Assembly (NCBI RefSeq): GCF_003334355.1
Contig: NZ_QOWP01000034.1
Length of the DNA stretch: 37,733 nt
Strand: one strand, 5' to 3'
Origin: Escherichia coli
GTDB lineage: Bacteria; Pseudomonadota; Gammaproteobacteria; Enterobacterales; Enterobacteriaceae
Of the stretch, positions 1,924 through 19,231 are shown one piece after another (within the stretch, counting starts at the first letter, position 1; each line of letters begins with the position of its first letter). The notes below the pieces were generated by a model. That model was given only the letters and a program-made list of their open reading frames with translations, had not been told where the DNA came from and did not search any database. Made by a program: the position numbers and the translations under genes.

Positions 1924-3243
1924 ATGGATATCTGCTCCCGAAACGAGAAATTAGCGATTAGAAGACCGGCGATACTGGTTGCACTGGCACTTTTACTGTG
2001 TAGTTGTAAAAGCACGCCTCCAGAGTCCATGGTGACACCACCAGCGGGTTCAAAGCCACCAGCCACGACGCAACAATCGTCACAACCGATGCGTGGCATC
2101 TGGCTGGCCACGGTGTCTCGCCTCGACTGGCCACCGGTTTCCTCGGTTAACATTAGTAACCCCACCAGCCGGGCCCGTGTACAAAAACAGGCGATGATCG
2201 ACAAACTGGATCATCTGCAACGTCTCGGTATAAACACGGTCTTTTTCCAGGTCAAGCCGGACGGTACCGCCCTGTGGCCATCGAAAATTTTGCCGTGGTC
2301 CGATCTTATGACCGGTAAGATTGGTGAAAATCCGGGTTACGATCCGCTGCAATTTATGCTCGACGAAGCCCACAAGCGTGGGATGAAAGTACACGCCTGG
2401 TTTAACCCCTATCGCGTATCGGTTAATACGAAGCCCGGTACTATCAGGGAACTGAATAGCACTCTGTCTCAACAACCGGCGAGCGTCTATGTGCAACACC
2501 GCGACTGGATCAGAACGTCTGGCGATCGCTTTGTCCTCGACCCGGGCATCCCTGAGGTTCAGGACTGGATCACATCAATAGTCGCAGAAGTGGTTTCCCG
2601 CTATCCCGTAGATGGCGTGCAGTTTGACGACTATTTCTATACGGAGTCACCGGGTTCACGGCTAAATGATAACGAAACGTACCGTAAATACGGAGGCGCA
2701 TTTGCGTCAAAAGCAGACTGGCGGCGCAACAATACTCAGCAGTTAATTGCAAAGGTATCGCACACCATTAAAAGCATTAAGCCGGGAGTCGAATTTGGTG
2801 TTAGCCCGGCAGGCGTGTGGCGTAACCGATCACACGATCCGCTCGGTTCCGATACCCGAGGCGCGGCAGCCTATGACGAATCCTACGCTGACACCCGTCG
2901 ATGGGTGGAACAAGGATTGCTGGATTACATTGCTCCCCAAATTTACTGGCCGTTCTCACGGAGTGCCGCGCGTTATGACGTGTTGGCAAAATGGTGGGCG
3001 GATGTCGTTAAACCGACCAGGACCCGCCTGTATATCGGTATCGCCTTCTATAAAGTGGGTGAACCTTCAAAGATAGAGCCAGACTGGATGATTAACGGCG
3101 GCGTACCGGAACTGAAAAAGCAGCTCGATCTTAACGATGCTGTGCCCGAAATTAGCGGCACCATCTTGTTCCGTGAGGACTATCTGAATAAACCGCAGAC
3201 TCAACAAGCGGTCAGCTATCTGCAAAGTCGCTGGGGCAGTTAA
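1924..3243 (+). CDS. yddW: Lipoprotein glycoside-hydrolase-like protein (YddW; I recall it also being called DigH, a divisome-associated glycosyl hydrolase)
   Basis: 439-aa ORF with an N-terminal signal peptide and Cys-containing lipobox-like segment (LALLLCSCKS). Length and sequence match E. coli YddW. The exact start codon was not verified. Confidence 0.85.
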   Translation: MDICSRNEKLAIRRPAILVALALLLCSCKSTPPESMVTPPAGSKPPATTQQSSQPMRGIWLATVSRLDWPPVSSVNISNPTSRARVQKQAMIDKLDHLQRLGINTVFFQVKPDGTALWPSKILPWSDLMTGKIGENPGYDPLQFMLDEAHKRGMKVHAWFNPYRVSVNTKPGTIRELNSTLSQQPASVYVQHRDWIRTSGDRFVLDPGIPEVQDWITSIVAEVVSRYPVDGVQFDDYFYTESPGSRLNDNETYRKYGGAFASKADWRRNNTQQLIAKVSHTIKSIKPGVEFGVSPAGVWRNRSHDPLGSDTRGAAAYDESYADTRRWVEQGLLDYIAPQIYWPFSRSAARYDVLAKWWADVVKPTRTRLYIGIAFYKVGEPSKIEPDWMINGGVPELKKQLDLNDAVPEISGTILFREDYLNKPQTQQAVSYLQSRWGS

Positions 3244-5013: not shown

Positions 5014-7413
5014 ATGAAGCTAACCGATGCGGATAATGCCGCCGATGGCATTTTTTTCCCCGCCCTTGAGCAAAATATGATGGGTGCGGTGTTAATTAAC
5101 GAAAATGATGAAGTGATGTTTTTCAACCCCGCCGCAGAGAAGCTCTGGGGATACAAACGTGAAGAAGTCATTGGCAATAACATTGATATGCTGATTCCGC
5201 GGGATTTGCGTCCTGCGCATCCTGAATACATTCGTCACAACCGTGAAGGCGGTAAAGCGCGTGTTGAGGGGATGAGTCGGGAGCTGCAGCTGGAGAAAAA
5301 AGACGGCAGTAAAATCTGGACCCGTTTTGCGCTATCGAAAGTGAGCGCCGAGGGGAAAGTTTATTACCTGGCGCTGGTACGGGATGCCAGCGTAGAAATG
5401 GCGCAAAAAGAACAGACCCGACAATTGATTATTGCCGTTGACCATCTCGACCGACCGGTGATTGTCCTCGATCCGGAACGCCATATTGTGCAGTGCAATC
5501 GCGCATTTACCGAAATGTTTGGTTACTGCATTAGCGAAGCCAGCGGTATGCAGCCCGATACACTCCTGAACATTCCTGAATTCCCTGCCGATAACCGCAT
5601 TCGTTTACAACAGTTGCTATGGAAAACCGCCCACGATCAGGACGAATTTCTGCTGTTGACGCGCACCGGTGAAAAAATCTGGATTAAAGCCTCTATCAGC
5701 CCGGTTTATGACGTGCTCGCGCATCTGCAGAACCTGGTAATGACTTTCTCGGATATCACCGAAGAACGGCAGATTCGCCAGCTTGAAGGCAATATTCTCG
5801 CCGCCATGTGCAGCAGCCCGCCATTTCATGAAATGGGGGAAATCATTTGTCGTAACATCGAATCTGTACTCAACGAATCGCATGTTTCGCTGTTCGCACT
5901 GCGCAACGGGATGCCGATACACTGGGCGTCATCTTCCCACGGTGCAGAAATTCAAAATGCGCAAAGCTGGTCAGCGACCATTCGTCAGCGTGATGGCGCG
6001 CCTGCGGGGATCCTGCAAATTAAAACCTCGTCAGGAGCAGAAACCAGCGCCTTTATCGAACGCGTGGCAGATATCAGCCAGCATATGGCCGCGCTGGCGC
6101 TGGAACAGGAAAAAAGCCGTCAGCATATTGAACAACTCATCCAATTTGATCCGATGACCGGTCTGCCAAATCGCAATAACCTGCACAATTACCTCGATGA
6201 CCTGGTCGACAAAGCCGTCTCTCCCGTGGTGTATCTCATCGGTGTTGACCATATTCAGGATGTGATTGATAGCCTTGGCTATGCGTGGGCCGATCAGGCA
6301 TTGCTGGAAGTGGTCAATCGCTTTCGTGAAAAACTCAAACCGGATCAGTATCTCTGTCGTATCGAAGGTACGCAGTTTGTCCTCGTGAGCCTCGAAAACG
6401 ACGTCAGTAACATTACCCAAATCGCCGATGAGCTACGGAATGTGGTCAGCAAGCCGATAATGATTGACGATAAACCCTTCCCGCTTACCTTGAGTATTGG
6501 CATCAGCTACGACCTGGGTAAAAACCGCGATTACTTGCTCTCCACTGCTCACAATGCAATGGATTATATTCGCAAGAATGGCGGTAACGGCTGGCAGTTC
6601 TTCAGCCCGGCGATGAACGAAATGGTAAAAGAGCGTTTGGTTTTAGGCGCAGCGCTGAAAGAAGCGATTAGCAATAACCAACTGAAACTGGTTTACCAGC
6701 CGCAAATATTCGCAGAAACGGGTGAACTGTACGGCATCGAAGCCCTTGCTCGCTGGCACGATCCCCTGCATGGTCATGTGCCCCCTTCACGGTTTATTCC
6801 TCTCGCAGAAGAGATTGGTGAAATCGAAAATATTGGGCGCTGGGTCATCGCGGAAGCTTGCCGTCAGTTAGCAGAATGGCGTAGCCAGAATATTCATATC
6901 CCGGCGTTATCCGTGAACTTGTCGGCGCTGCACTTTCGCAGTAATCAACTGCCTAATCAGGTGTCTGATGCAATGCACGCCTGGGGTATTGACGGCCACC
7001 AGCTGACGGTAGAAATCACGGAAAGCATGATGATGGAACACGATACCGAAATCTTTAAGCGCATTCAGATCCTGCGTGATATGGGCGTGGGCTTATCGGT
7101 AGATGATTTTGGTACGGGCTTTTCCGGATTATCCCGCTTAGTCAGTCTTCCGGTAACGGAAATCAAAATTGACAAAAGTTTTGTCGATCGTTGTCTGACC
7201 GAAAAACGCATCCTTGCCTTACTTGAAGCCATTACCAGCATTGGGCAAAGCCTCAATTTAACCGTCGTGGCGGAAGGCGTCGAAACCAAAGAGCAATTTG
7301 AGATGCTACGCAAGATCCACTGTCGCGTTATTCAGGGATATTTCTTTTCCCGCCCCCTACCCGCCGAAGAAATTCCAGGCTGGATGAGCAGCGTGTTACC
7401 GCTGAAAATCTGA
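5014..7413 (+). CDS. dosP: Heme-PAS oxygen-sensing c-di-GMP phosphodiesterase (PAS-PAS-GGDEF-like-EAL)
   Basis: 799 aa from ATG 5014 (MKLTDADNAADGIFFPALEQ...). EAL motif (YGIEALARW) in the C-terminal domain. The ORF-track start at 4990 is an upstream in-frame extension that overlaps the dosC stop. Confidence 0.93.
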   Translation: MKLTDADNAADGIFFPALEQNMMGAVLINENDEVMFFNPAAEKLWGYKREEVIGNNIDMLIPRDLRPAHPEYIRHNREGGKARVEGMSRELQLEKKDGSKIWTRFALSKVSAEGKVYYLALVRDASVEMAQKEQTRQLIIAVDHLDRPVIVLDPERHIVQCNRAFTEMFGYCISEASGMQPDTLLNIPEFPADNRIRLQQLLWKTAHDQDEFLLLTRTGEKIWIKASISPVYDVLAHLQNLVMTFSDITEERQIRQLEGNILAAMCSSPPFHEMGEIICRNIESVLNESHVSLFALRNGMPIHWASSSHGAEIQNAQSWSATIRQRDGAPAGILQIKTSSGAETSAFIERVADISQHMAALALEQEKSRQHIEQLIQFDPMTGLPNRNNLHNYLDDLVDKAVSPVVYLIGVDHIQDVIDSLGYAWADQALLEVVNRFREKLKPDQYLCRIEGTQFVLVSLENDVSNITQIADELRNVVSKPIMIDDKPFPLTLSIGISYDLGKNRDYLLSTAHNAMDYIRKNGGNGWQFFSPAMNEMVKERLVLGAALKEAISNNQLKLVYQPQIFAETGELYGIEALARWHDPLHGHVPPSRFIPLAEEIGEIENIGRWVIAEACRQLAEWRSQNIHIPALSVNLSALHFRSNQLPNQVSDAMHAWGIDGHQLTVEITESMMMEHDTEIFKRIQILRDMGVGLSVDDFGTGFSGLSRLVSLPVTEIKIDKSFVDRCLTEKRILALLEAITSIGQSLNLTVVAEGVETKEQFEMLRKIHCRVIQGYFFSRPLPAEEIPGWMSSVLPLKI

Positions 7414-7426
7414 CAAATTCCTCTCG

Positions 7427-7444
7427 CCCGCACTCGCGGGTTTT
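7427..7444 (+). terminator. Short GC hairpin plus T-tract after dosP (CCCGC-ACTC-GCGGG-TTTT)
   Basis: Read from the sequence, 14 nt after the dosP stop. The stem is only 5 bp, so strength is modest. Confidence 0.55.
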
Positions 7445-7610
7445 CATTTAACGTGACACTGTCACTTAAATACTGTGATTTCAGCTACGATTCCGGGAGA
7501 TTCCTTCCTTAACTTCCCCTCTTGCACCAAAACTGCACTACGCTGCACAAATGTTGATCAAAAGTTAAAAAATATAACTTTAAGCCAGCATTCTGGCGCT
7601 TATCCCGGCA

Positions 7611-7626
7611 TGGCATGAGATCTGCA
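7611..7626 (+). promoter_or_regulatory. Sigma-54 (RpoN) -24/-12 type promoter upstream of ddpX (TGGCAT-N5-CTGCA)
   Basis: TGGCATGAGATCTGCA has GG and GC separated by exactly 10 nt, matching the sigma-54 consensus TGGCACG-N4-TTGCA at most positions. Located 45-60 nt upstream of the ddpX ATG. A GCAC-rich cluster at 7523-7549 resembles NtrC-type enhancer half-sites. Confidence 0.6.
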
Positions 7627-7670
7627 TAAGCGGAAAGCGCAGCAATTTTTGTCTTATACAGGAACCGTTT

Positions 7671-8252
7671 ATGTCGGATACCACCGAACTGGTTGATTTA
7701 GCCGTAATCTTCCCTGATCTGGAGATCGAATTGAAATACGCCTGCGCTGATAACATCACAGGTAAAGCTATTTATCAGCAAGCGCGTTGTCTGTTACACA
7801 AGGATGCGATTACCGCGCTGGCGAAAAGTATCAGCATCGCCCAGCTGTCAGGGTTACAACTGGTGATTTACGATGCGTATCGCCCACAACAAGCACAGGC
7901 GATGTTGTGGCAAGCCTGCCCAGACCCGCAATATGTTGTTGATGTGACGGTCGGTTCTAATCACAGCCGTGGCACGGCGATCGACCTGACGCTTCGTGAT
8001 GAGCACGGGAACATCCTCGATATGGGCGCAGGGTTCGATGAAATGCACGAGCGCTCCCATGCCTATCACCCTTCCGTCCCGCCCGCCGCTCAGCGCAATC
8101 GGCTGTTGCTGAATGCGATAATGACTGGTGGCGGTTTTGTCGGTATCTCCAGCGAATGGTGGCACTTCGAATTACCCCAGGCAGCGAGTTACCCTCTGCT
8201 CGCTGATCAATTCTCTTGTTTTATATCCCCTGGCACACAGCACGTCAGTTAA
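7671..8252 (+). CDS. ddpX: D-Ala-D-Ala dipeptidase (VanX homolog, Zn-dependent)
   Basis: 193-aa ORF. The SNHSRGTAIDLT and EWWHFE segments are typical of the VanX/DdpX family. First gene of the ddp operon. Confidence 0.93.
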   Translation: MSDTTELVDLAVIFPDLEIELKYACADNITGKAIYQQARCLLHKDAITALAKSISIAQLSGLQLVIYDAYRPQQAQAMLWQACPDPQYVVDVTVGSNHSRGTAIDLTLRDEHGNILDMGAGFDEMHERSHAYHPSVPPAAQRNRLLLNAIMTGGGFVGISSEWWHFELPQAASYPLLADQFSCFISPGTQHVS

Positions 8253-8265
8253 TCAGGAAACTGTC

Positions 8266-9816
8266 ATGAAGAGATCGATATCGTTTCGTCCCACATTGCT
8301 CGCGCTCGTCCTTGCCACAAATTTCCCGGTTGCGCACGCCGCCGTACCAAAAGATATGCTGGTGATTGGTAAGGCCGCCGATCCACAAACCCTCGACCCG
8401 GCGGTAACAATAGATAATAACGACTGGACAGTGACCTACCCGTCTTATCAGCGGCTGGTTCAGTACAAAACGGACGGTGATAAAGGCTCAACCGACGTTG
8501 AAGGCGATCTGGCAAGTAGCTGGAAAGCGTCTGACGATCAAAAAGAGTGGACGTTCACCCTGAAAGATAATGCTAAATTTGCCGATGGCACACCTGTCAC
8601 TGCCGAAGCAGTAAAACTTTCTTTTGAGCGGCTACTAAAAATCGGCCAGGGGCCAGCAGAAGCATTTCCCAAAGATTTAAAGATTGATGCTCCCGACGAA
8701 CATACGGTGAAGTTTACCCTTAGCCAACCATTCGCACCGTTCCTCTACACGCTGGCGAATGACGGTGCATCCATTATCAATCCGGCGGTCTTAAAGGAAC
8801 ATGCAGCGGATGATGCTCGCGGCTTCCTCGCGCAAAATACCGCCGGTTCCGGACCATTTATGCTGAAAAGCTGGCAAAAAGGTCAGCAATTAGTTCTGGT
8901 GCCAAATCCGCATTACCCAGGCAATAAACCGAACTTCAAACGGGTATCGGTAAAAATTATTGGTGAAAGTGCCTCCCGTCGCCTGCAGCTCTCCCGTGGC
9001 GACATTGACATTGCCGATGCGCTGCCGGTGGATCAACTCAACGCCCTGAAGCAGGAAAATAAAGTCAATGTGGCAGAGTATCCGTCACTGCGCGTTACCT
9101 ATCTGTATCTGAATAACAGCAAAGCGCCTCTTAATCAGGCGGATCTGCGTCGGGCCATTTCCTGGTCTACCGATTATCAGGGCATGGTTAACGGCATTCT
9201 GAGTGGTAACGGAAAACAGATGCGCGGCCCGATTCCGGAAGGCATGTGGGGCTACGATGCGACGGCAATGCAATACAACCATGACGAAACGAAAGCCAAA
9301 GCCGAATGGGATAAAGTGACGAGCAAACCCACCAGCCTGACGTTTCTCTACTCCGATAACGATCCGAACTGGGAGCCTATTGCTCTGGCGACACAATCCA
9401 GTCTCAACAAGCTGGGCATCATTGTGAAGCTGGAAAAGCTGGCGAACGCCACCATGCGCGACAGAGTGGGTAAAGGTGATTACGACATTGCGATTGGCAA
9501 CTGGAGTCCGGATTTTGCCGACCCGTATATGTTTATGAATTACTGGTTTGAGTCAGACAAAAAAGGTCTGCCGGGTAACCGCTCGTTCTATGAAAACAGT
9601 GAGGTCGATAAGTTACTGCGCAATGCGCTTGCGACCACCGACCAGACGCAGCGTACCCGGGACTACCAGCAGGCACAGAAAATCGTCATTGATGACGCTG
9701 CTTATGTGTACCTGTTCCAGAAAAACTACCAACTGGCGATGAACAAAGAGGTGAAAGGCTTTGTGTTCAATCCCATGCTGGAACAGGTCTTCAATATCAA
9801 TACCATGAGTAAATAA
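8266..9816 (+). CDS. ddpA: Periplasmic dipeptide-binding protein of ABC transporter (family 5 SBP)
   Basis: 516 aa from ATG 8266, with signal peptide MKRSISFRPTLLALVLATNFPVAHAA. The ORF-track start at 8128 is an upstream extension that overlaps ddpX. Confidence 0.93.
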   Translation: MKRSISFRPTLLALVLATNFPVAHAAVPKDMLVIGKAADPQTLDPAVTIDNNDWTVTYPSYQRLVQYKTDGDKGSTDVEGDLASSWKASDDQKEWTFTLKDNAKFADGTPVTAEAVKLSFERLLKIGQGPAEAFPKDLKIDAPDEHTVKFTLSQPFAPFLYTLANDGASIINPAVLKEHAADDARGFLAQNTAGSGPFMLKSWQKGQQLVLVPNPHYPGNKPNFKRVSVKIIGESASRRLQLSRGDIDIADALPVDQLNALKQENKVNVAEYPSLRVTYLYLNNSKAPLNQADLRRAISWSTDYQGMVNGILSGNGKQMRGPIPEGMWGYDATAMQYNHDETKAKAEWDKVTSKPTSLTFLYSDNDPNWEPIALATQSSLNKLGIIVKLEKLANATMRDRVGKGDYDIAIGNWSPDFADPYMFMNYWFESDKKGLPGNRSFYENSEVDKLLRNALATTDQTQRTRDYQQAQKIVIDDAAYVYLFQKNYQLAMNKEVKGFVFNPMLEQVFNINTMSK

Positions 9817-9817
9817 C

Positions 9818-10840
9818 GTGACCTTCTGGAGTATTTTACGCCAACGCTGCTGGGGGCTGGTGCTCGTGGTGGCGGGCGTCTGCGTGATTACGTTTATTAT
9901 CTCGCATCTGATCCCTGGTGATCCGGCGCGGTTACTGGCGGGTGACCGCGCCAGCGATGCTATCGTGGAAAATATTCGCCAGCAACTGGGACTGGACCAG
10001 CCACTGTATGTACAGTTTTACCGCTACGTCAGCGACCTGTTTCATGGTGACCTGGGAACATCCATTCGTACCGGGCGTCCGGTGCTGGAAGAGTTGCGTA
10101 TATTTTTCCCGGCGACGCTGGAGCTGGCTTTTGGTGCCCTGCTGCTGGCACTCCTGATTGGCATCCCGCTGGGCATACTCTCTGCAGTCTGGCGAAATCG
10201 CTGGCTGGATCATCTGGTGCGAATAATGGCCATTACCGGAATCTCCACACCTGCGTTCTGGCTTGGGCTGGGCGTCATTGTGCTGTTTTATGGTCATCTG
10301 CAAATTCTTCCCGGCGGCGGAAGGCTTGATGACTGGCTGGATCCACCAACGCACGTTACCGGCTTTTATCTGCTCGATGCGCTGCTTGAAGGCAACGGTG
10401 AAGTCTTCTTCAATGCGTTGCAACATCTCATCTTACCGGCATTAACGCTGGCGTTCGTTCACCTGGGAATTGTCGCTCGCCAGATCCGCTCAGCGATGCT
10501 GGAACAATTGAGTGAAGACTACATTCGTACCGCCCGGGCCAGCGGCTTGCCCGGCTGGTATATCGTTTTATGTTATGCGCTACCCAATGCGTTGATCCCA
10601 TCGATTACCGTATTGGGTTTGGCGCTGAGCGATTTGTTGTATGGCGCAGTGCTCACCGAAACCGTTTTTGCCTGGCCCGGAATGGGTGCATGGGTAGTAA
10701 CATCAATACAGGCGCTCGACTTCCCGGCAGTGATGGGCTTTGCCGTCGTGGTTTCATTTGCTTATGTGCTGGTCAACCTGGTGGTGGATTTGCTCTATTT
10801 GTGGATTGATCCGCGTATCGGACGTGGAGGTGGTGAATGA
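9818..10840 (+). CDS. ddpB: ABC transporter permease (DppB/OppB-like)
   Basis: 340-aa hydrophobic ORF with GTG start 1 nt after the ddpA stop. Permease signature region present. Confidence 0.9.
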   Translation: MTFWSILRQRCWGLVLVVAGVCVITFIISHLIPGDPARLLAGDRASDAIVENIRQQLGLDQPLYVQFYRYVSDLFHGDLGTSIRTGRPVLEELRIFFPATLELAFGALLLALLIGIPLGILSAVWRNRWLDHLVRIMAITGISTPAFWLGLGVIVLFYGHLQILPGGGRLDDWLDPPTHVTGFYLLDALLEGNGEVFFNALQHLILPALTLAFVHLGIVARQIRSAMLEQLSEDYIRTARASGLPGWYIVLCYALPNALIPSITVLGLALSDLLYGAVLTETVFAWPGMGAWVVTSIQALDFPAVMGFAVVVSFAYVLVNLVVDLLYLWIDPRIGRGGGE

Positions 10841-11733
10841 TGCTAAGCGAGGAAACGTCCGCCGTACGCCCACAAAAACAAACGCGATTTAACGGTGCAA
10901 AACTGGTATGGATGCTGAAAGGCAGTCCGCTCACCGTGACCAGCGCAGTCATCATTGTATTAATGCTATTGATGATGATTTTTTCACCGTGGCTGGCGAC
11001 GCATGATCCCAACGCCATTGATTTAACCGCCCGCCTTTTGCCGCCTTCTGCGGCGCACTGGTTTGGCACCGATGAAGTGGGACGCGATCTGTTTAGCCGC
11101 GTACTGGTCGGCAGTCAGCAATCAATTCTCGCCGGATTAGTCGTGGTTGCCATTGCGGGTATGATTGGTTCGCTACTCGGATGTCTATCCGGTGTGCTTG
11201 GCGGACGCGCAGACGCCATCATCATGCGCATCATGGACATTATGCTGTCGATTCCTTCGTTGGTACTGACAATGGCACTGGCTGCCGCTCTCGGGCCGAG
11301 TTTGTTTAACGCCATGCTGGCTATTGCTATTGTGCGAATTCCCTTTTATGTGCGCCTGGCGCGGGGGCAAGCATTAGTTGTACGCCAGTATACCTATGTT
11401 CAGGCGGCGAAAACCTTTGGCGCGTCTCGTTGGCATCTGATCAACTGGCATATTTTACGTAACTCCCTACCGCCGCTGATCGTGCAGGCATCGCTGGATA
11501 TCGGTAGCGCGATTTTAATGGCCGCCACGTTGGGATTTATTGGCCTGGGTGCTCAACAACCGAGTGCTGAATGGGGCGCGATGGTAGCAAATGGTCGCAA
11601 CTATGTACTCGATCAGTGGTGGTATTGCGCATTTCCGGGGGCAGCGATTTTGCTTACCGCCGTCGGGTTTAATCTCTTTGGTGATGGTATTCGCGATCTG
11701 CTTGACCCGAAAGCAGGAGGAAAGCAGTCATGA
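10837..11733 (+). CDS. ddpC: ABC transporter permease (DppC/OppC-like)
   Basis: 298-aa hydrophobic ORF. Its ATG overlaps the ddpB stop (ATGA). Confidence 0.9.
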   Translation: MMLSEETSAVRPQKQTRFNGAKLVWMLKGSPLTVTSAVIIVLMLLMMIFSPWLATHDPNAIDLTARLLPPSAAHWFGTDEVGRDLFSRVLVGSQQSILAGLVVVAIAGMIGSLLGCLSGVLGGRADAIIMRIMDIMLSIPSLVLTMALAAALGPSLFNAMLAIAIVRIPFYVRLARGQALVVRQYTYVQAAKTFGASRWHLINWHILRNSLPPLIVQASLDIGSAILMAATLGFIGLGAQQPSAEWGAMVANGRNYVLDQWWYCAFPGAAILLTAVGFNLFGDGIRDLLDPKAGGKQS

Positions 11734-12716
11734 CCCAACCCGTTCTGGACATTCAACAACTGCATTTGAGTTTCCCCGGTTTTAACGGTGATGTTCACGC
11801 GCTCAACAATGTGTCCTTGCAGATTAACCGCGGTGAAATTGTCGGTCTGGTGGGAGAATCCGGCTCAGGTAAATCAGTCACCGCAATGCTGATTATGCGT
11901 CTGCTACCGACGGGCAGTTATTGCGTACATCGGGGGCAGATTTCCCTGCTGGGAGAAGATGTTCTTAACGCGCGGGAAAAACAGCTTCGTCAGTGGCGCG
12001 GCGCACGAGTGGCGATGATCTTTCAGGAACCGATGACCGCCCTCAATCCGACACGTCGAATAGGTCTTCAGATGATGGACGTGATCCGCCATCATCAACC
12101 AATAAGTCGTCGGGAAGCCAGAGCTAAAGCGATTGACCTGCTGGAAGAGATGCAAATCCCGGATGCCGTGGAAGTTATGTCGCGCTATCCGTTTGAGCTT
12201 TCAGGTGGTATGCGCCAGCGGGTAATGATTGCGCTGGCATTCTCCTGCGAGCCGCAATTGATTATTGCCGACGAACCGACTACGGCGCTGGACGTCACGG
12301 TGCAGTTGCAGGTACTGCGTTTGCTTAAACATAAAGCCCGCGCCAGTGGAACTGCGGTTCTGTTCATCAGCCATGATATGGCCGTGGTGTCGCAACTGTG
12401 CGATAGCGTTTACGTGATGTATGCCGGAAGCGTAATTGAAAGCGGCGTGACGGCAGACGTTATCCATCATCCCCGGCATCCGTATACCATTGGTTTGCTG
12501 CAATGCGCACCAGAACATGGAGTACCACGCCAGCTATTACCCGCCATTCCAGGGACGGTACCAAACCTCACCCATTTGCCTGACGGCTGCGCTTTTCGCG
12601 ATCGTTGCTATGCGGCAGGTGCACAGTGTGAAAACGTCCCGGCGCTGACAGCGTGTGGTGACAACAACCAGCGCTGTGCCTGTTGGTATCCGCAGCAGGA
12701 GGTTATAAGTGTCTGA
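11730..12716 (+). CDS. ddpD: ABC transporter ATP-binding protein
   Basis: 328 aa with Walker A GESGSGKS and ABC signature LSGGMRQR. ATGA overlap with ddpC. Confidence 0.92.
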   Translation: MTQPVLDIQQLHLSFPGFNGDVHALNNVSLQINRGEIVGLVGESGSGKSVTAMLIMRLLPTGSYCVHRGQISLLGEDVLNAREKQLRQWRGARVAMIFQEPMTALNPTRRIGLQMMDVIRHHQPISRREARAKAIDLLEEMQIPDAVEVMSRYPFELSGGMRQRVMIALAFSCEPQLIIADEPTTALDVTVQLQVLRLLKHKARASGTAVLFISHDMAVVSQLCDSVYVMYAGSVIESGVTADVIHHPRHPYTIGLLQCAPEHGVPRQLLPAIPGTVPNLTHLPDGCAFRDRCYAAGAQCENVPALTACGDNNQRCACWYPQQEVISV

Positions 12717-13635
12717 CACGTTATTAACGTTACGCGACGTCCATATCAATTTCCCGGCCCGTAAAAACTGGCTTGGTAAAACTACGGAACATGTTCATGC
12801 CATTAATGGTATTGATTTACAGATCCGCCGTGGTGAAACCTTAGGGATCGTCGGCGAGTCAGGCTGCGGCAAAAGCACCCTCGCACAGCTTTTAATGGGT
12901 ATGCTGCAACCGAGCCACGGGCAGTACATCCGTTCTGGCTCACAACGCATTATGCAGATGGTGTTTCAGGACCCGCTCTCTTCGCTTAATCCGCGCTTAC
13001 CGGTGTGGCGCATCATCACAGAACCGCTCTGGATAGCTAAGCGTAGTAGTGAACAACAGCGGCGAGCGTTGGCAGAGGAGTTGGCTGTGCAGGTGGGTAT
13101 TCGTCCGGAGTATCTCGACCGCCTGCCTCATGCGTTCTCCGGCGGGCAGCGGCAACGTATCGCCATTGCCAGAGCACTCTCTTCGCAGCCTGACGTGATT
13201 GTGCTTGATGAGCCAACCTCTGCGCTGGATATCTCCGTTCAGGCGCAGATCCTCAATTTACTGGTAACGCTACAGGAAAATCACGGGCTGACCTATGTGC
13301 TGATTTCACACAATGTCTCGGTGATACGTCATATGAGCGATCGGGTGGCGGTGATGTATCTCGGGCAGATTGTAGAACTGGGCGACGCGCAGCAGGTGCT
13401 GACGGCACCTGCACATCCATACACCCGATTATTGCTGGATTCCCTCCCCGCCATTGATAAACCGCTGGAGGAAGAATGGGCATTACGTAAAACGGATCTG
13501 CCGGGAAACCGCACGTTGCCGCAAGGCTGTTTTTTCTACGAACGTTGCCCGCTGGCAACCCACGGATGTGAAGTCCGGCAATCATTAGCAATAAGGGAGG
13601 ACGGACGTGAGCTCCGGTGCTGGCGGGCGCTGTAG
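12709..13635 (+). CDS. ddpF: ABC transporter ATP-binding protein
   Basis: 308 aa with Walker A GESGCGKS and signature FSGGQRQR. GTG start preceded by AGGAGG. 8-nt overlap with ddpD. Confidence 0.92.
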   Translation: MSDTLLTLRDVHINFPARKNWLGKTTEHVHAINGIDLQIRRGETLGIVGESGCGKSTLAQLLMGMLQPSHGQYIRSGSQRIMQMVFQDPLSSLNPRLPVWRIITEPLWIAKRSSEQQRRALAEELAVQVGIRPEYLDRLPHAFSGGQRQRIAIARALSSQPDVIVLDEPTSALDISVQAQILNLLVTLQENHGLTYVLISHNVSVIRHMSDRVAVMYLGQIVELGDAQQVLTAPAHPYTRLLLDSLPAIDKPLEEEWALRKTDLPGNRTLPQGCFFYERCPLATHGCEVRQSLAIREDGRELRCWRAL

Positions 13636-13690
13636 AGATGCTAACAACGCATCAGGCATTCACGCGCCTGACGCGTCATCCGGCAATGCT

Positions 13691-18577: not shown

Positions 18578-19231
18578 TTATATCCCTTCTTCACTCTCTT
18601 TTTTCGCTTCTGCCTTCTCGATTTCACGATACCAGCGCGGATGGTGTTTCTTCGCCCAGCGACGACTTACCTTCCCTTCGATCATCCCTTTAATCGATCC
18701 TTTCACCCAAAATGCCATATACATATGGATCAGGATGGCGTGGATCAGGATGATGCCGGCAGCCGCGTGGATCAGCAGGCTGTAGCGAACAACCTGCATC
18801 GGGAAGTACTGCGCAAAGTACGGACGCCAGATAATCACCCCGGTCACCAGCAGCACGAAAATCATGCTCATGATCGACCAGAACATCATCTTTTGCCCGG
18901 CGTTGTACTTACCAACATCCGCCACTTTGTGCTCATTGCCTTTTAATACTTCGACAATGTTCAACAGCCACGGAATATCTTTCTTATCCGGGATGTTGTG
19001 ATGCACAAAACGCACAAACATAAACATCAGTGCGACGAAAATCGCAATGCCGAAGAACGGGTGCAAAATGCGTCCCATCTGCGGCGTACCGAAGGTTTGC
19101 GTCAGCCATTGCAGCGTCGGGAAGAAGAACGAAATCCCGGACAGCGCCACCAGGAAGAAGCAAATCACCACGGTCCAGTGACAGGCGCGATCAATAAATT
19201 TGGTGCGCACAATCATTTTCGACTTACTCAT
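18578..19231 (-). CDS. fdnI: Formate dehydrogenase-N gamma subunit (cytochrome b556)
   Basis: 217 aa from ATG at 19229-19231 ([20 protein letters not shown]...). Four transmembrane helices with conserved His. Start overlaps the fdnH 3' end by 8 nt. Confidence 0.92.

Follow-up and report, generated by a model that had tools for sequence, protein, structure and literature searches.

What drives transcription of ddpX and the transporter genes behind it, and to which signal does that promoter answer? We addressed this in a stretch of E. coli chromosome of 37,733 nt (the window), in which the region of interest is the dosP-ddpX intergenic interval, 7414-7670; dosP ends at 7413, and ddpX was taken from the list of open reading frames. 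An earlier note on this DNA had proposed a sigma-54 promoter here, preceded by three GCAC motifs resembling NtrC half-sites, and had suggested that nitrogen limitation is the signal. In an identical RefSeq region the gene order is dosC, dosP, ddpX, ddpA, ddpB, ddpC, ddpD, ddpF and then osmC on the opposite strand, and the ends of ddpX and the five transporter genes overlap or nearly touch, as in an operon. Judged from the sequence, a GC-rich hairpin with a T-run just after dosP looks like the terminator of that gene and would insulate ddp from dosCP transcription, so that ddp would need its own promoter. We propose that 7522-7637 is very probably the enhancer and promoter of the E. coli ddpXABCDF operon, at which NtrC~P activates sigma-54-dependent transcription under nitrogen limitation. 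The features on which this proposal draws are collected in the table.

Features of the dosP-ddpX region and the ddp operon (window coordinates), with conservation in the 16-genome footprint where it was scored
Feature	Position	Strand	Basis or remark	Conservation
Apparent dosP intrinsic terminator, GC stem and T-run	7426..7450	+	terminator scan, sequence	
ddp module (upstream element, promoter, six genes) as indel	7493..13645	.	genome comparison	
Upstream flank				0.42
NtrC-type site 1, TGCACCAAAACTGCACT, centre -106	7523..7539	.	5/14 mismatches to TGCACCAnnnTGGTGCA	
Block TGCACCAAAA (site 1)				0.95
Middle TGCAC repeat, in weak right half of site 1	7534..7538	+	not conserved	
NtrC-type site 2, TGCACAAATGTTGATCA, centre -85	7544..7560	.	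4/14 mismatches to TGCACCAnnnTGGTGCA	
Site 2 block				0.88
GTTAA just past site 2				0.90
A+T-rich spacer, 91% A+T, A6 tract, GTTAA at 7564-7568	7561..7583	.	sequence, footprint	
Spacer				0.54
Sigma-54 -24/-12 element ATGGCATGAGATCTGCA (ddpXp)	7610..7626	+	PWM; published site identity; conservation	
TGGCA of sigma-54 element				1.00
TGCA of sigma-54 element				0.97
Predicted transcription start	7637	+	12 nt past C of GC element, 19 nt past motif centre	
Ribosome-binding site AGGA, 7 nt before ddpX ATG	7660..7663	+	sequence	
ddpX, Zn-dependent D-Ala-D-Ala dipeptidase, VanX family	7671..8252	+	ORF; RefSeq annotation, identical region; Pfam PF01427 on homologues	
ddpABCDF, D,D-dipeptide ABC importer genes	8266..13635	+	ORFs; mapped RefSeq annotation	

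The RpoN element claimed in the earlier note, TGGCATGAGATCTGCA, lies exactly at 7611-7626, with GG at 7612-7613, GC at 7624-7625 and 10 nt between them. Scored with a sigma-54 position weight matrix (PWM) trained on 133 independent ChIP-seq sites (Bonocora et al.), a set that excludes the two lying in this window, the interval 7610-7626 reached 14.8, and nothing else in the 37.7-kb window scored higher on either strand. For comparison, the validated sites have a median of 14.4, ddpXp falls within the upper 60% of them, and shuffled windows reach its score 0.3 times per window. The second-best match (14.5 at 32727-32743) is inside narY and coincides with the other published sigma-54 site in the window. 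The strict pattern TGGCA-N7-TGCA gave a similar picture: it occurs twice, where 0.53 would be expected, and each copy coincides with a sigma-54 ChIP site already in print. A loose consensus with three or fewer mismatches returned 53 matches against 71 expected and was discarded as uninformative.

That ddpXp is a sigma-54/NtrC promoter is already published. The sequence ATGGCATGAGATCTGCA is, letter for letter, the intergenic, sense-oriented sigma-54 ChIP-seq site OS16 (Bonocora et al. 2015; PMC4591121), which has a peak 10-fold above threshold (peak centre 1561149, motif centre 1561153), a predicted start 34 nt from ddpX and a mark showing that it was predicted in EcoCyc. The motif centre is at window position 7618, and the K-12 (U00096.2) position therefore equals 1568771 minus the window position. 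The same motif was printed from sigma-54 overexpression arrays (Zhao 2010), and the site was recovered by genomic SELEX (Shimada 2021; PMC8743547).

Nitrogen control of ddp through sigma-54 and NtrC, as the earlier note supposed, is likewise documented. An NtrC ChIP-seq peak at ddpXABCDF was found in nitrogen-starved cells (Brown 2014; PMC4066584), and Brown et al. cite Zimmer (2000) for NtrC-dependent ddp expression, in agreement with the earlier note. In gel shifts, NtrC, the RpoN holoenzyme and both together shift a ddpX probe that its primers place at window 7340-7748; purified NtrC alone suffices, and NtrC with RpoN holoenzyme forms a ternary complex (PMC8743547). By qPCR, ddpX mRNA rises 104-fold on nitrogen depletion, a response that the same authors conclude needs both RpoN and NtrC (PMC8743547). 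The promoter studied here thus differs in nothing from E. coli ddpXp as described in EcoCyc/RegulonDB and in these reports (Bonocora 2015; Zimmer 2000; Brown 2014; Shimada 2021), having the same sequence, gene and regulators. As a textbook member of the NtrC/sigma-54 nitrogen-scavenging group, the promoter itself adds nothing new, and its value is that of a positive control: a reading of raw sequence recovered a real, experimentally validated promoter and its enhancer.

The predicted start was computed from the sequence, by the distance rule given in the table and the 34-nt distance in Table 1 of Bonocora et al.; a literature search for an experimentally mapped ddpX 5' end found none. As Bonocora et al. 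emphasize, many sigma-54 sites may be permanently silent (PMC4591121), and ddpXA expression has been reported to be RpoS-dependent in stationary phase; both observations would fit a site that is non-productive, like many intragenic sites in E. coli, with ddp transcribed from a sigma-70 or sigma-S promoter. We find this scarcely credible. The element is intergenic and on the same strand as ddpX, has the dosP terminator upstream and leaves a predicted leader of 34 nt to the start codon; more than 65 genomes keep it in front of the orthologous operon; the 104-fold induction on nitrogen depletion is attributed to RpoN and NtrC (PMC8743547); and a consensus scan of 7350-7720 found no sigma-70-type promoter. 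A sigma-70 or sigma-S promoter was also considered as the explanation of the RpoS dependence itself and was rejected on the same scan; ddpXp alone leaves that dependence unexplained, and it may be an indirect effect.

We also considered whether the published NtrC ChIP-seq intervals (80 bp) locate the enhancer, and rejected them for this purpose. At ddpX the interval corresponds to window 7590-7670, which is over the promoter and off the upstream element, and at nine other Ntr promoters (glnA, nac, glnH, astC, rutA, argT, yeaG, yhdW and patA) the reported intervals likewise sit on the sigma-54 motif centres. At glnA the interval covers the promoter although strong NtrC sites lie 90-120 bp further upstream, indicating that the intervals do not resolve enhancers.

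The upstream GCAC string TTGCACCAAAACTGCACTACGCTGCACA is present where the earlier note had described it, except that it runs from 7522, not 7523, to 7549. Its GCAC cores start at 7524, 7535 and 7545, within TGCAC copies at 7523, 7534 and 7544 that form direct repeats spaced by 11 and 10 bp; such a cluster of three same-strand TGCAC inside 27 nt is found a single time in the window, whereas Markov-1 simulations predict 0.02. When compared with the published NtrC consensus TGCACCAnnnTGGTGCA, the region yields two candidate dyads (sites 1 and 2), whose centres are 21 bp apart, about two helical turns; the scan also picked up an overlapping middle 17-mer at -95. In site 1 the left half, TGCACCA, is perfect and the right half poor, as is the case almost everywhere among the orthologues. 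The same mismatch scan recovers the sites of glnAp2 at -140 (one mismatch) and -108 (two), nac at -152 (one), glnH at -121 (two) and -108 (one), and glnK at -87 (four), and the ddpX sites, with four and five mismatches, rank beside that of glnK. Single sites of this quality turn up about every 380 bp in the window, which is chance level; taken from the E. coli sequence alone, such dyads would prove nothing. The left halves of the ddpX dyads are, however, perfect or nearly so. Our literature search found no footprint or mutational data on the upstream element and no printed position or layout of the ddpX NtrC sites, and the sequence of the element had no match in the literature or in the Shimada supplement.

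The evidence that carries the two-dyad layout comes from other genomes. One genome per species was scanned with a DdpX alignment, giving 80 loci from Enterobacterales and a few Pseudomonas, and the promoter regions of 16 genomes (nine named genera plus two metagenome-assembled genomes) were used for a phylogenetic footprint, in which conservation is the majority fraction. By this alignment, the Escherichia promoter and upstream element are homologous to those of the other genera. Of the nine differences between E. coli and Escherichia sp. E1V33, six lie in the 15 nt that immediately precede the element, and 7517-7570 has none. The site 2 core, CTGCACAAATGTTG, does not vary among Escherichia, Citrobacter, Enterobacter and Huaxiibacter. 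Orthologous NtrC-type sites reach two to three mismatches, including a near-consensus dyad, TGCACCGATTTTGTGCA (two mismatches), in two Enterobacteriaceae genomes, and the best sites of the upstream zone mostly have three to four mismatches, as against five to six in matched coding controls. In Serratia and Rahnella the left arm of the dyad is weak and the right arm strong (TGCCCAATTGTTGTGCA; TTGTGCA); a swap of half-site strength from left to right between Escherichia/Citrobacter and Serratia/Rahnella is expected if selection keeps the total affinity of the 17-bp dyad. The footprint shows which enhancer bases are under selection and can guide the design of footprinting and mutagenesis experiments.

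Spacing follows a comparable pattern. A distance of 21 bp between the dyads is shared by Escherichia, Citrobacter, Enterobacter, Brenneria, Lonsdalea, Prodigiosinella and Rouxiella. Rahnella has 22 bp, and Serratia and Huaxiibacter have 30-31 bp; in Huaxiibacter the extra length is due to a duplication of the 10-bp unit CTGCACTACG. The site 2 core and the sigma-54 motif are separated by 66-67 nt in Escherichia, a gap that widens to 76-79 nt in Citrobacter and Enterobacter and to 86-89 nt in Mixta, Brenneria and Lonsdalea; these distances differ by steps of about one helical turn, with the register lost in more distant genera.

The three GCAC motifs might be read in another way, implied by the earlier note, as equivalent direct-repeat NtrC half-sites, one per helical turn and each taking one subunit, with no pair of dyads. 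The helical phase of the TGCAC copies at 7523, 7534 and 7544, together with their chance rate of 0.02 per window, agrees with such an arrangement, as does Huaxiibacter, in which the 10-bp duplication creates a fourth copy and keeps the phase. The conservation pattern nevertheless makes it improbable. At the middle position GCAC gives way to GAAC in C. youngae, C. koseri and Enterobacter and to GCGC, GGGC or GATC in Mixta, Brenneria and Lonsdalea, whereas both outer copies hardly vary; moreover, conservation runs past the third GCAC through a stretch, AAATGTTGATCA, that matches the right arm of a dyad, and this is the half that is strong (TTGTGCA) in Serratia and Rahnella. Of the half-sites proposed in the earlier note, the first and third correspond to strong left arms of NtrC-type dyads kept across genera; the middle one (GAAC, GCGC or GATC elsewhere) does not share this status and, on comparison of the orthologous sequences, is probably not a separate half-site.

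The conserved GTTAA past site 2 lies outside the 17-bp NtrC dyad. This, the weak match to the NtrC consensus in E. coli and the failure of the NtrC ChIP coordinates to resolve the element could all be accommodated if the upstream block were the target of another enhancer-binding protein or transcription factor and the NtrC dependence of ddp were indirect. Such a scenario is very unlikely, given that purified NtrC is enough to shift the ddpX probe and joins the RpoN holoenzyme in a ternary complex (PMC8743547), that the perfect TGCACCA half-site and the two-mismatch orthologous dyads are specific to the NtrC consensus, and that, among the loci listed, no open reading frame large enough for an enhancer-binding protein lies within about 2 kb upstream.

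Direct activation by NtrC from two dyads, the reading that we prefer, can be set out as follows. Sigma-54 RNA polymerase would hold ATGGCATGAGATCTGCA (7610-7626) as a closed complex. NtrC~P, accumulating under nitrogen limitation, would assemble on the two dyads (predicted contacts 7523-7539 and 7544-7560, at -106 and -85), reach the promoter by looping over the short spacer, the first 23 nt of which are 91% A+T and contain an A6 tract, and remodel the closed complex, with transcription starting at about 7637 only then. The A+T-rich segment (7561-7583) probably helps the DNA bend; it forms an Escherichia-specific palindrome, AAAGTTA-N7-TAACTTT. An IHF site in the spacer was considered as well: between enhancer and promoter the IHF core WATCAANNNNTTR has only a two-mismatch match (7556-7568), of a kind that occurs about 290 times in the window by chance, and IHF is therefore not invoked.

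Since each dyad matches the consensus only poorly, the enhancer probably belongs to a weak class, like that of glnK. Weak NtrC enhancers, as work on glnK and nac has established, fire only at high NtrC~P, and by analogy ddp may need high NtrC~P and be a late member of the regulon that responds to true starvation. Once imported, D-Ala-D-Ala would be split by DdpX, acting as a cytoplasmic dipeptidase beside the D,D-dipeptide importer, and the D-alanine would be deaminated to yield ammonium. Nitrogen scavenging from D-Ala-D-Ala is thus a reasonable physiological reading, and it would fit the scavenging theme of the Ntr regulon, a theme credited to Zimmer et al.

Comparison with better-studied promoters places ddpXp among its relatives. 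What the promoters of glnK-amtB, glnHp2 and ddpX have in common is a sigma-54 -24/-12 element and, between -85 and -135, dyads of the NtrC type. The best glnK site, with four mismatches, is similar to the ddpX sites; those of glnHp2 are strong (one to two mismatches), unlike those of ddpX, and glnHp2 uses IHF. With glnAp2, ddpX shares a pair of phased dyads, at ddpX of NtrC type, ahead of its sigma-54 promoter, as well as activation by DNA looping, which for ddpX is the predicted mode. The two differ in that the glnAp2 dyads have one and two mismatches, lie at -140 and -108 and are 32 bp apart, whereas those of ddpX have five and four, lie at -106 and -85 and are 21 bp apart.

Outside Escherichia the operon begins differently. 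Escherichia has its sigma-54 motif 44-45 nt before ddpX, whereas in almost every other genus there is no sigma-54 motif directly before ddpX and a gene of about 288 codons on the same strand is found there instead; genera with this arrangement include Citrobacter, Enterobacter, Lelliottia, Huaxiibacter, Franconibacter, Mixta, Brenneria, Lonsdalea, Serratia, Rahnella and Rouxiella. The gene was present in 72 of 80 related loci, typically 9-20 nt upstream of ddpX (up to about 120 nt in Rahnella and some Brenneria), and a strong sigma-54 motif, e.g., ATGGCACGCGTCCTGCA, lies about 55-75 nt upstream of it; a motif scoring at least 11 occupies the equivalent place in 67 of the 72 loci with the regulator-ddpX arrangement. 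Its product is an RpiR/MurR-family protein with HTH_6 and SIS domains, and the NCBIfam model that fits it best is SapR. As the scores of 374-429 bits stay below the cutoff of 500, we regard the protein as a homologue of SapR and not as an equivalog. A blastn search of 5426 complete E. coli genomes with the Citrobacter gene gave no match, nor did a tblastn search of the window.

In 69 of the 72 regulator-containing loci a palindrome, TTGTTA-N6-TAACA (GTTA-N6-TAAC), directly follows the -12 element; the three others (two Pseudomonas and one Enterobacterales genome) have no sigma-54 motif either. None of the eight loci that lack the gene (two Escherichia, a metagenomic Enterobacterales, Erwinia endophytica, Pantoea, Mixta, Pseudomonas and a 275-nt fragment) has the palindrome, although the Mixta locus contains a truncated gene and a variant palindrome, and the 275-nt fragment has no upstream sequence. 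In the E. coli window the palindrome is absent from 7623-7712. Because it co-occurs with the regulator gene, the palindrome is likely the operator of the SapR-like regulator. Lying over the start site, it may serve in repression. In Burkholderia pseudomallei, however, a sapR mutant shows reduced expression of the adjacent dipeptidase and dipeptide ABC genes (PMC9884982), which would point to activation, or to polarity.

The B. pseudomallei sapR-ddpX-dipeptide ABC cluster and the enterobacterial operons contain the same dipeptidase and ABC importer genes as E. coli, and the enterobacterial operons also have the upstream element and the sigma-54 promoter. The differences are that (i) both kinds of cluster open with a SapR-like, RpiR-family gene, which Escherichia is without, and (ii) the enterobacterial operons carry GTTA-N6-TAAC right after the -12 element, which Escherichia is also without. 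On balance, we lean towards the view that the E. coli ddp promoter is a stripped-down form of an older promoter under two controls, that Escherichia and, independently, two other lineages lost the regulator gene and its operator together, that the operon then answered to nitrogen alone, and that the middle GCAC and the Huaxiibacter duplication are by-products of slippage. If this is true, E. coli ddp no longer answers to a substrate or cell-wall signal. In one metagenomic genome (L039) the last codons of the regulator gene remain beside ddpX (CAGTTCGAACATGA compared with CAATTCGAACAATAA), a remnant indicating that the gene was lost independently there. Deletion breakpoints were also sought in the 44-nt E. 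coli leader, by local alignment with the regulator genes of Citrobacter, Enterobacter, Huaxiibacter and Mixta and 300 shuffles. Five of six alignments were no better than the shuffles, 20-157 of which reached the score, and the Huaxiibacter alignment, reached by 7 of the 300, maps elsewhere than the others and was not counted. Only the last 16 nt or so of the E. coli leader (ACAGGAAnCGT..ATG) resemble the regulator-ddpX junction.

As far as our literature search shows, what is new here is modest: the two-dyad layout, its deep conservation, and the loss in Escherichia of a SapR-like regulator together with its probable operator. The missing regulator and likely operator matter when ddp regulation is extrapolated between E. 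coli and Citrobacter, Enterobacter, Serratia or Burkholderia. A more distant comparison is with VanX of the vanHAX cluster in vancomycin-resistant enterococci, a D-Ala-D-Ala dipeptidase of the enzyme family homologous to DdpX (Pfam PF01427). Expression of VanX is governed by the two-component system VanRS, acting through a sigma-70-type promoter, and the role of the enzyme is in resistance, not nutrition.

Within E. coli, the ddp region is itself variable. A 321-nt query around the promoter and upstream element matched 5392 of 5426 complete genomes; the match was partial in 1176 of the 5392, and three of these that were sampled matched only the first 110 nt or so. The promoter region is thus absent from up to about 22% of complete E. 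coli genomes, and the dosP-ddpX arrangement was found in 4216. In the one ddp-less genome inspected, a urinary isolate, dosP is followed directly by osmC, and 7493-13645 is replaced by 66 unrelated nt, so that enhancer, promoter and all six genes come and go as a unit. The left edge of this indel lies 30 nt upstream of site 1.

In most Enterobacterales (loci L004-L078 of the DdpX-alignment scan), the sigma-54 promoter and ddpX are separated by a SapR-like gene of the RpiR family, whose product of about 288 aa carries HTH_6 and SIS domains. The same gene neighbourhood is found in Burkholderia pseudomallei, where sapR adjoins genes for a D-Ala-D-Ala dipeptidase and a dipeptide ABC system. Two conserved elements of these loci are probably operators: a TTGTTA-N6-TAACA palindrome, which is restricted to loci with the regulator gene, and TGACAG-N5/6-TAACAGCGAGG, which lies just 5' of the regulator start codon.

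Outside Escherichia, two lineages present a lone ddpX directly behind a strong sigma-54 motif, namely an Enterobacterales MAG (L039) and Erwinia endophytica (L060). At neither locus did we find a regulator gene, the palindrome, or transporter genes 3' of ddpX. The MAG still carries the final codons of the regulator, which indicates that this lineage lost the gene in a separate, independent deletion.

The spacer between the enhancer and the ddpX promoter holds two inverted repeats in Escherichia, neither of which is kept beyond that genus. The first, AAAGTTA-N7-TAACTTT, has the GTTA...TAAC form in common with the candidate operator of other genera, but its spacer is one base longer; the second, GCCAG-N5-CTGGC, amounts to an NtrC-like 17-mer with five mismatches. 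Separately, the 10-bp enhancer unit CTGCACTACG is duplicated in tandem in Huaxiibacter chinensis (L037), creating a fourth TGCAC and lengthening the distance between the two NtrC-type sites by exactly one helical turn.

Within E. coli, the entire ddp module (enhancer, promoter and ddpXABCDF) behaves as an indel. Up to about 22% of complete E. coli genomes matched the query at its dosP end alone, and strain MS10711 has 66 nt between dosP and osmC in place of the module. The palindrome GTGACAcTGTCAC is kept in strains lacking ddp and thus belongs to the dosP side.

Table. Coordinates of the features discussed
Feature	Position	Strand	Remarks
SapR-like regulator gene (examples)	L005 2120-2986; L016 2134-2988		
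TTGTTA-N6-TAACA, conserved palindrome	L005 2064-2081; equivalent positions in 69 loci		directly 3' of -12 element
Lone ddpX behind sigma-54 motif	L039 2945-3000; L060 2912-3000		
AAAGTTA-N7-TAACTTT, inverted repeat	window 7561-7581		spacer; Escherichia-specific
GCCAG-N5-CTGGC, inverted repeat	window 7584-7598		spacer; Escherichia-specific; centre -45
CTGCACTACG tandem duplication	L037 about 1935-1975		
ddp module	window 7493-13645		
GTGACAcTGTCAC, perfect 13-bp palindrome	window 7454-7466		just 3' of dosP terminator
NtrC-like 17-mer cluster	window 18726-18784		inside coding sequence
CTGGCACTACCGTTGCA, sigma-54 site	window 32727-32743	+	PWM score 14.5, rank 2 in window

Two database loci are probably contamination or mislabelling. 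One (L079), a 275-nt contig labelled Nocardioides malaquae, carries a ddpX fragment with 100% identity to E. coli and is a low-coverage part of an actinobacterial assembly; the other (L056) is an enterobacterial-type ddp locus in an assembly labelled Chryseobacterium.

Elsewhere in the window, NtrC-like 17-mers cluster at just one further place; repetition of the TGGATCAG motif gives rise to this cluster, which probably reflects chance or the repeat. The sigma-54 site CTGGCACTACCGTTGCA corresponds to IS19, an intragenic sense site within narY whose ChIP signal was weak, at 2-fold above threshold (Bonocora, PMC4591121).
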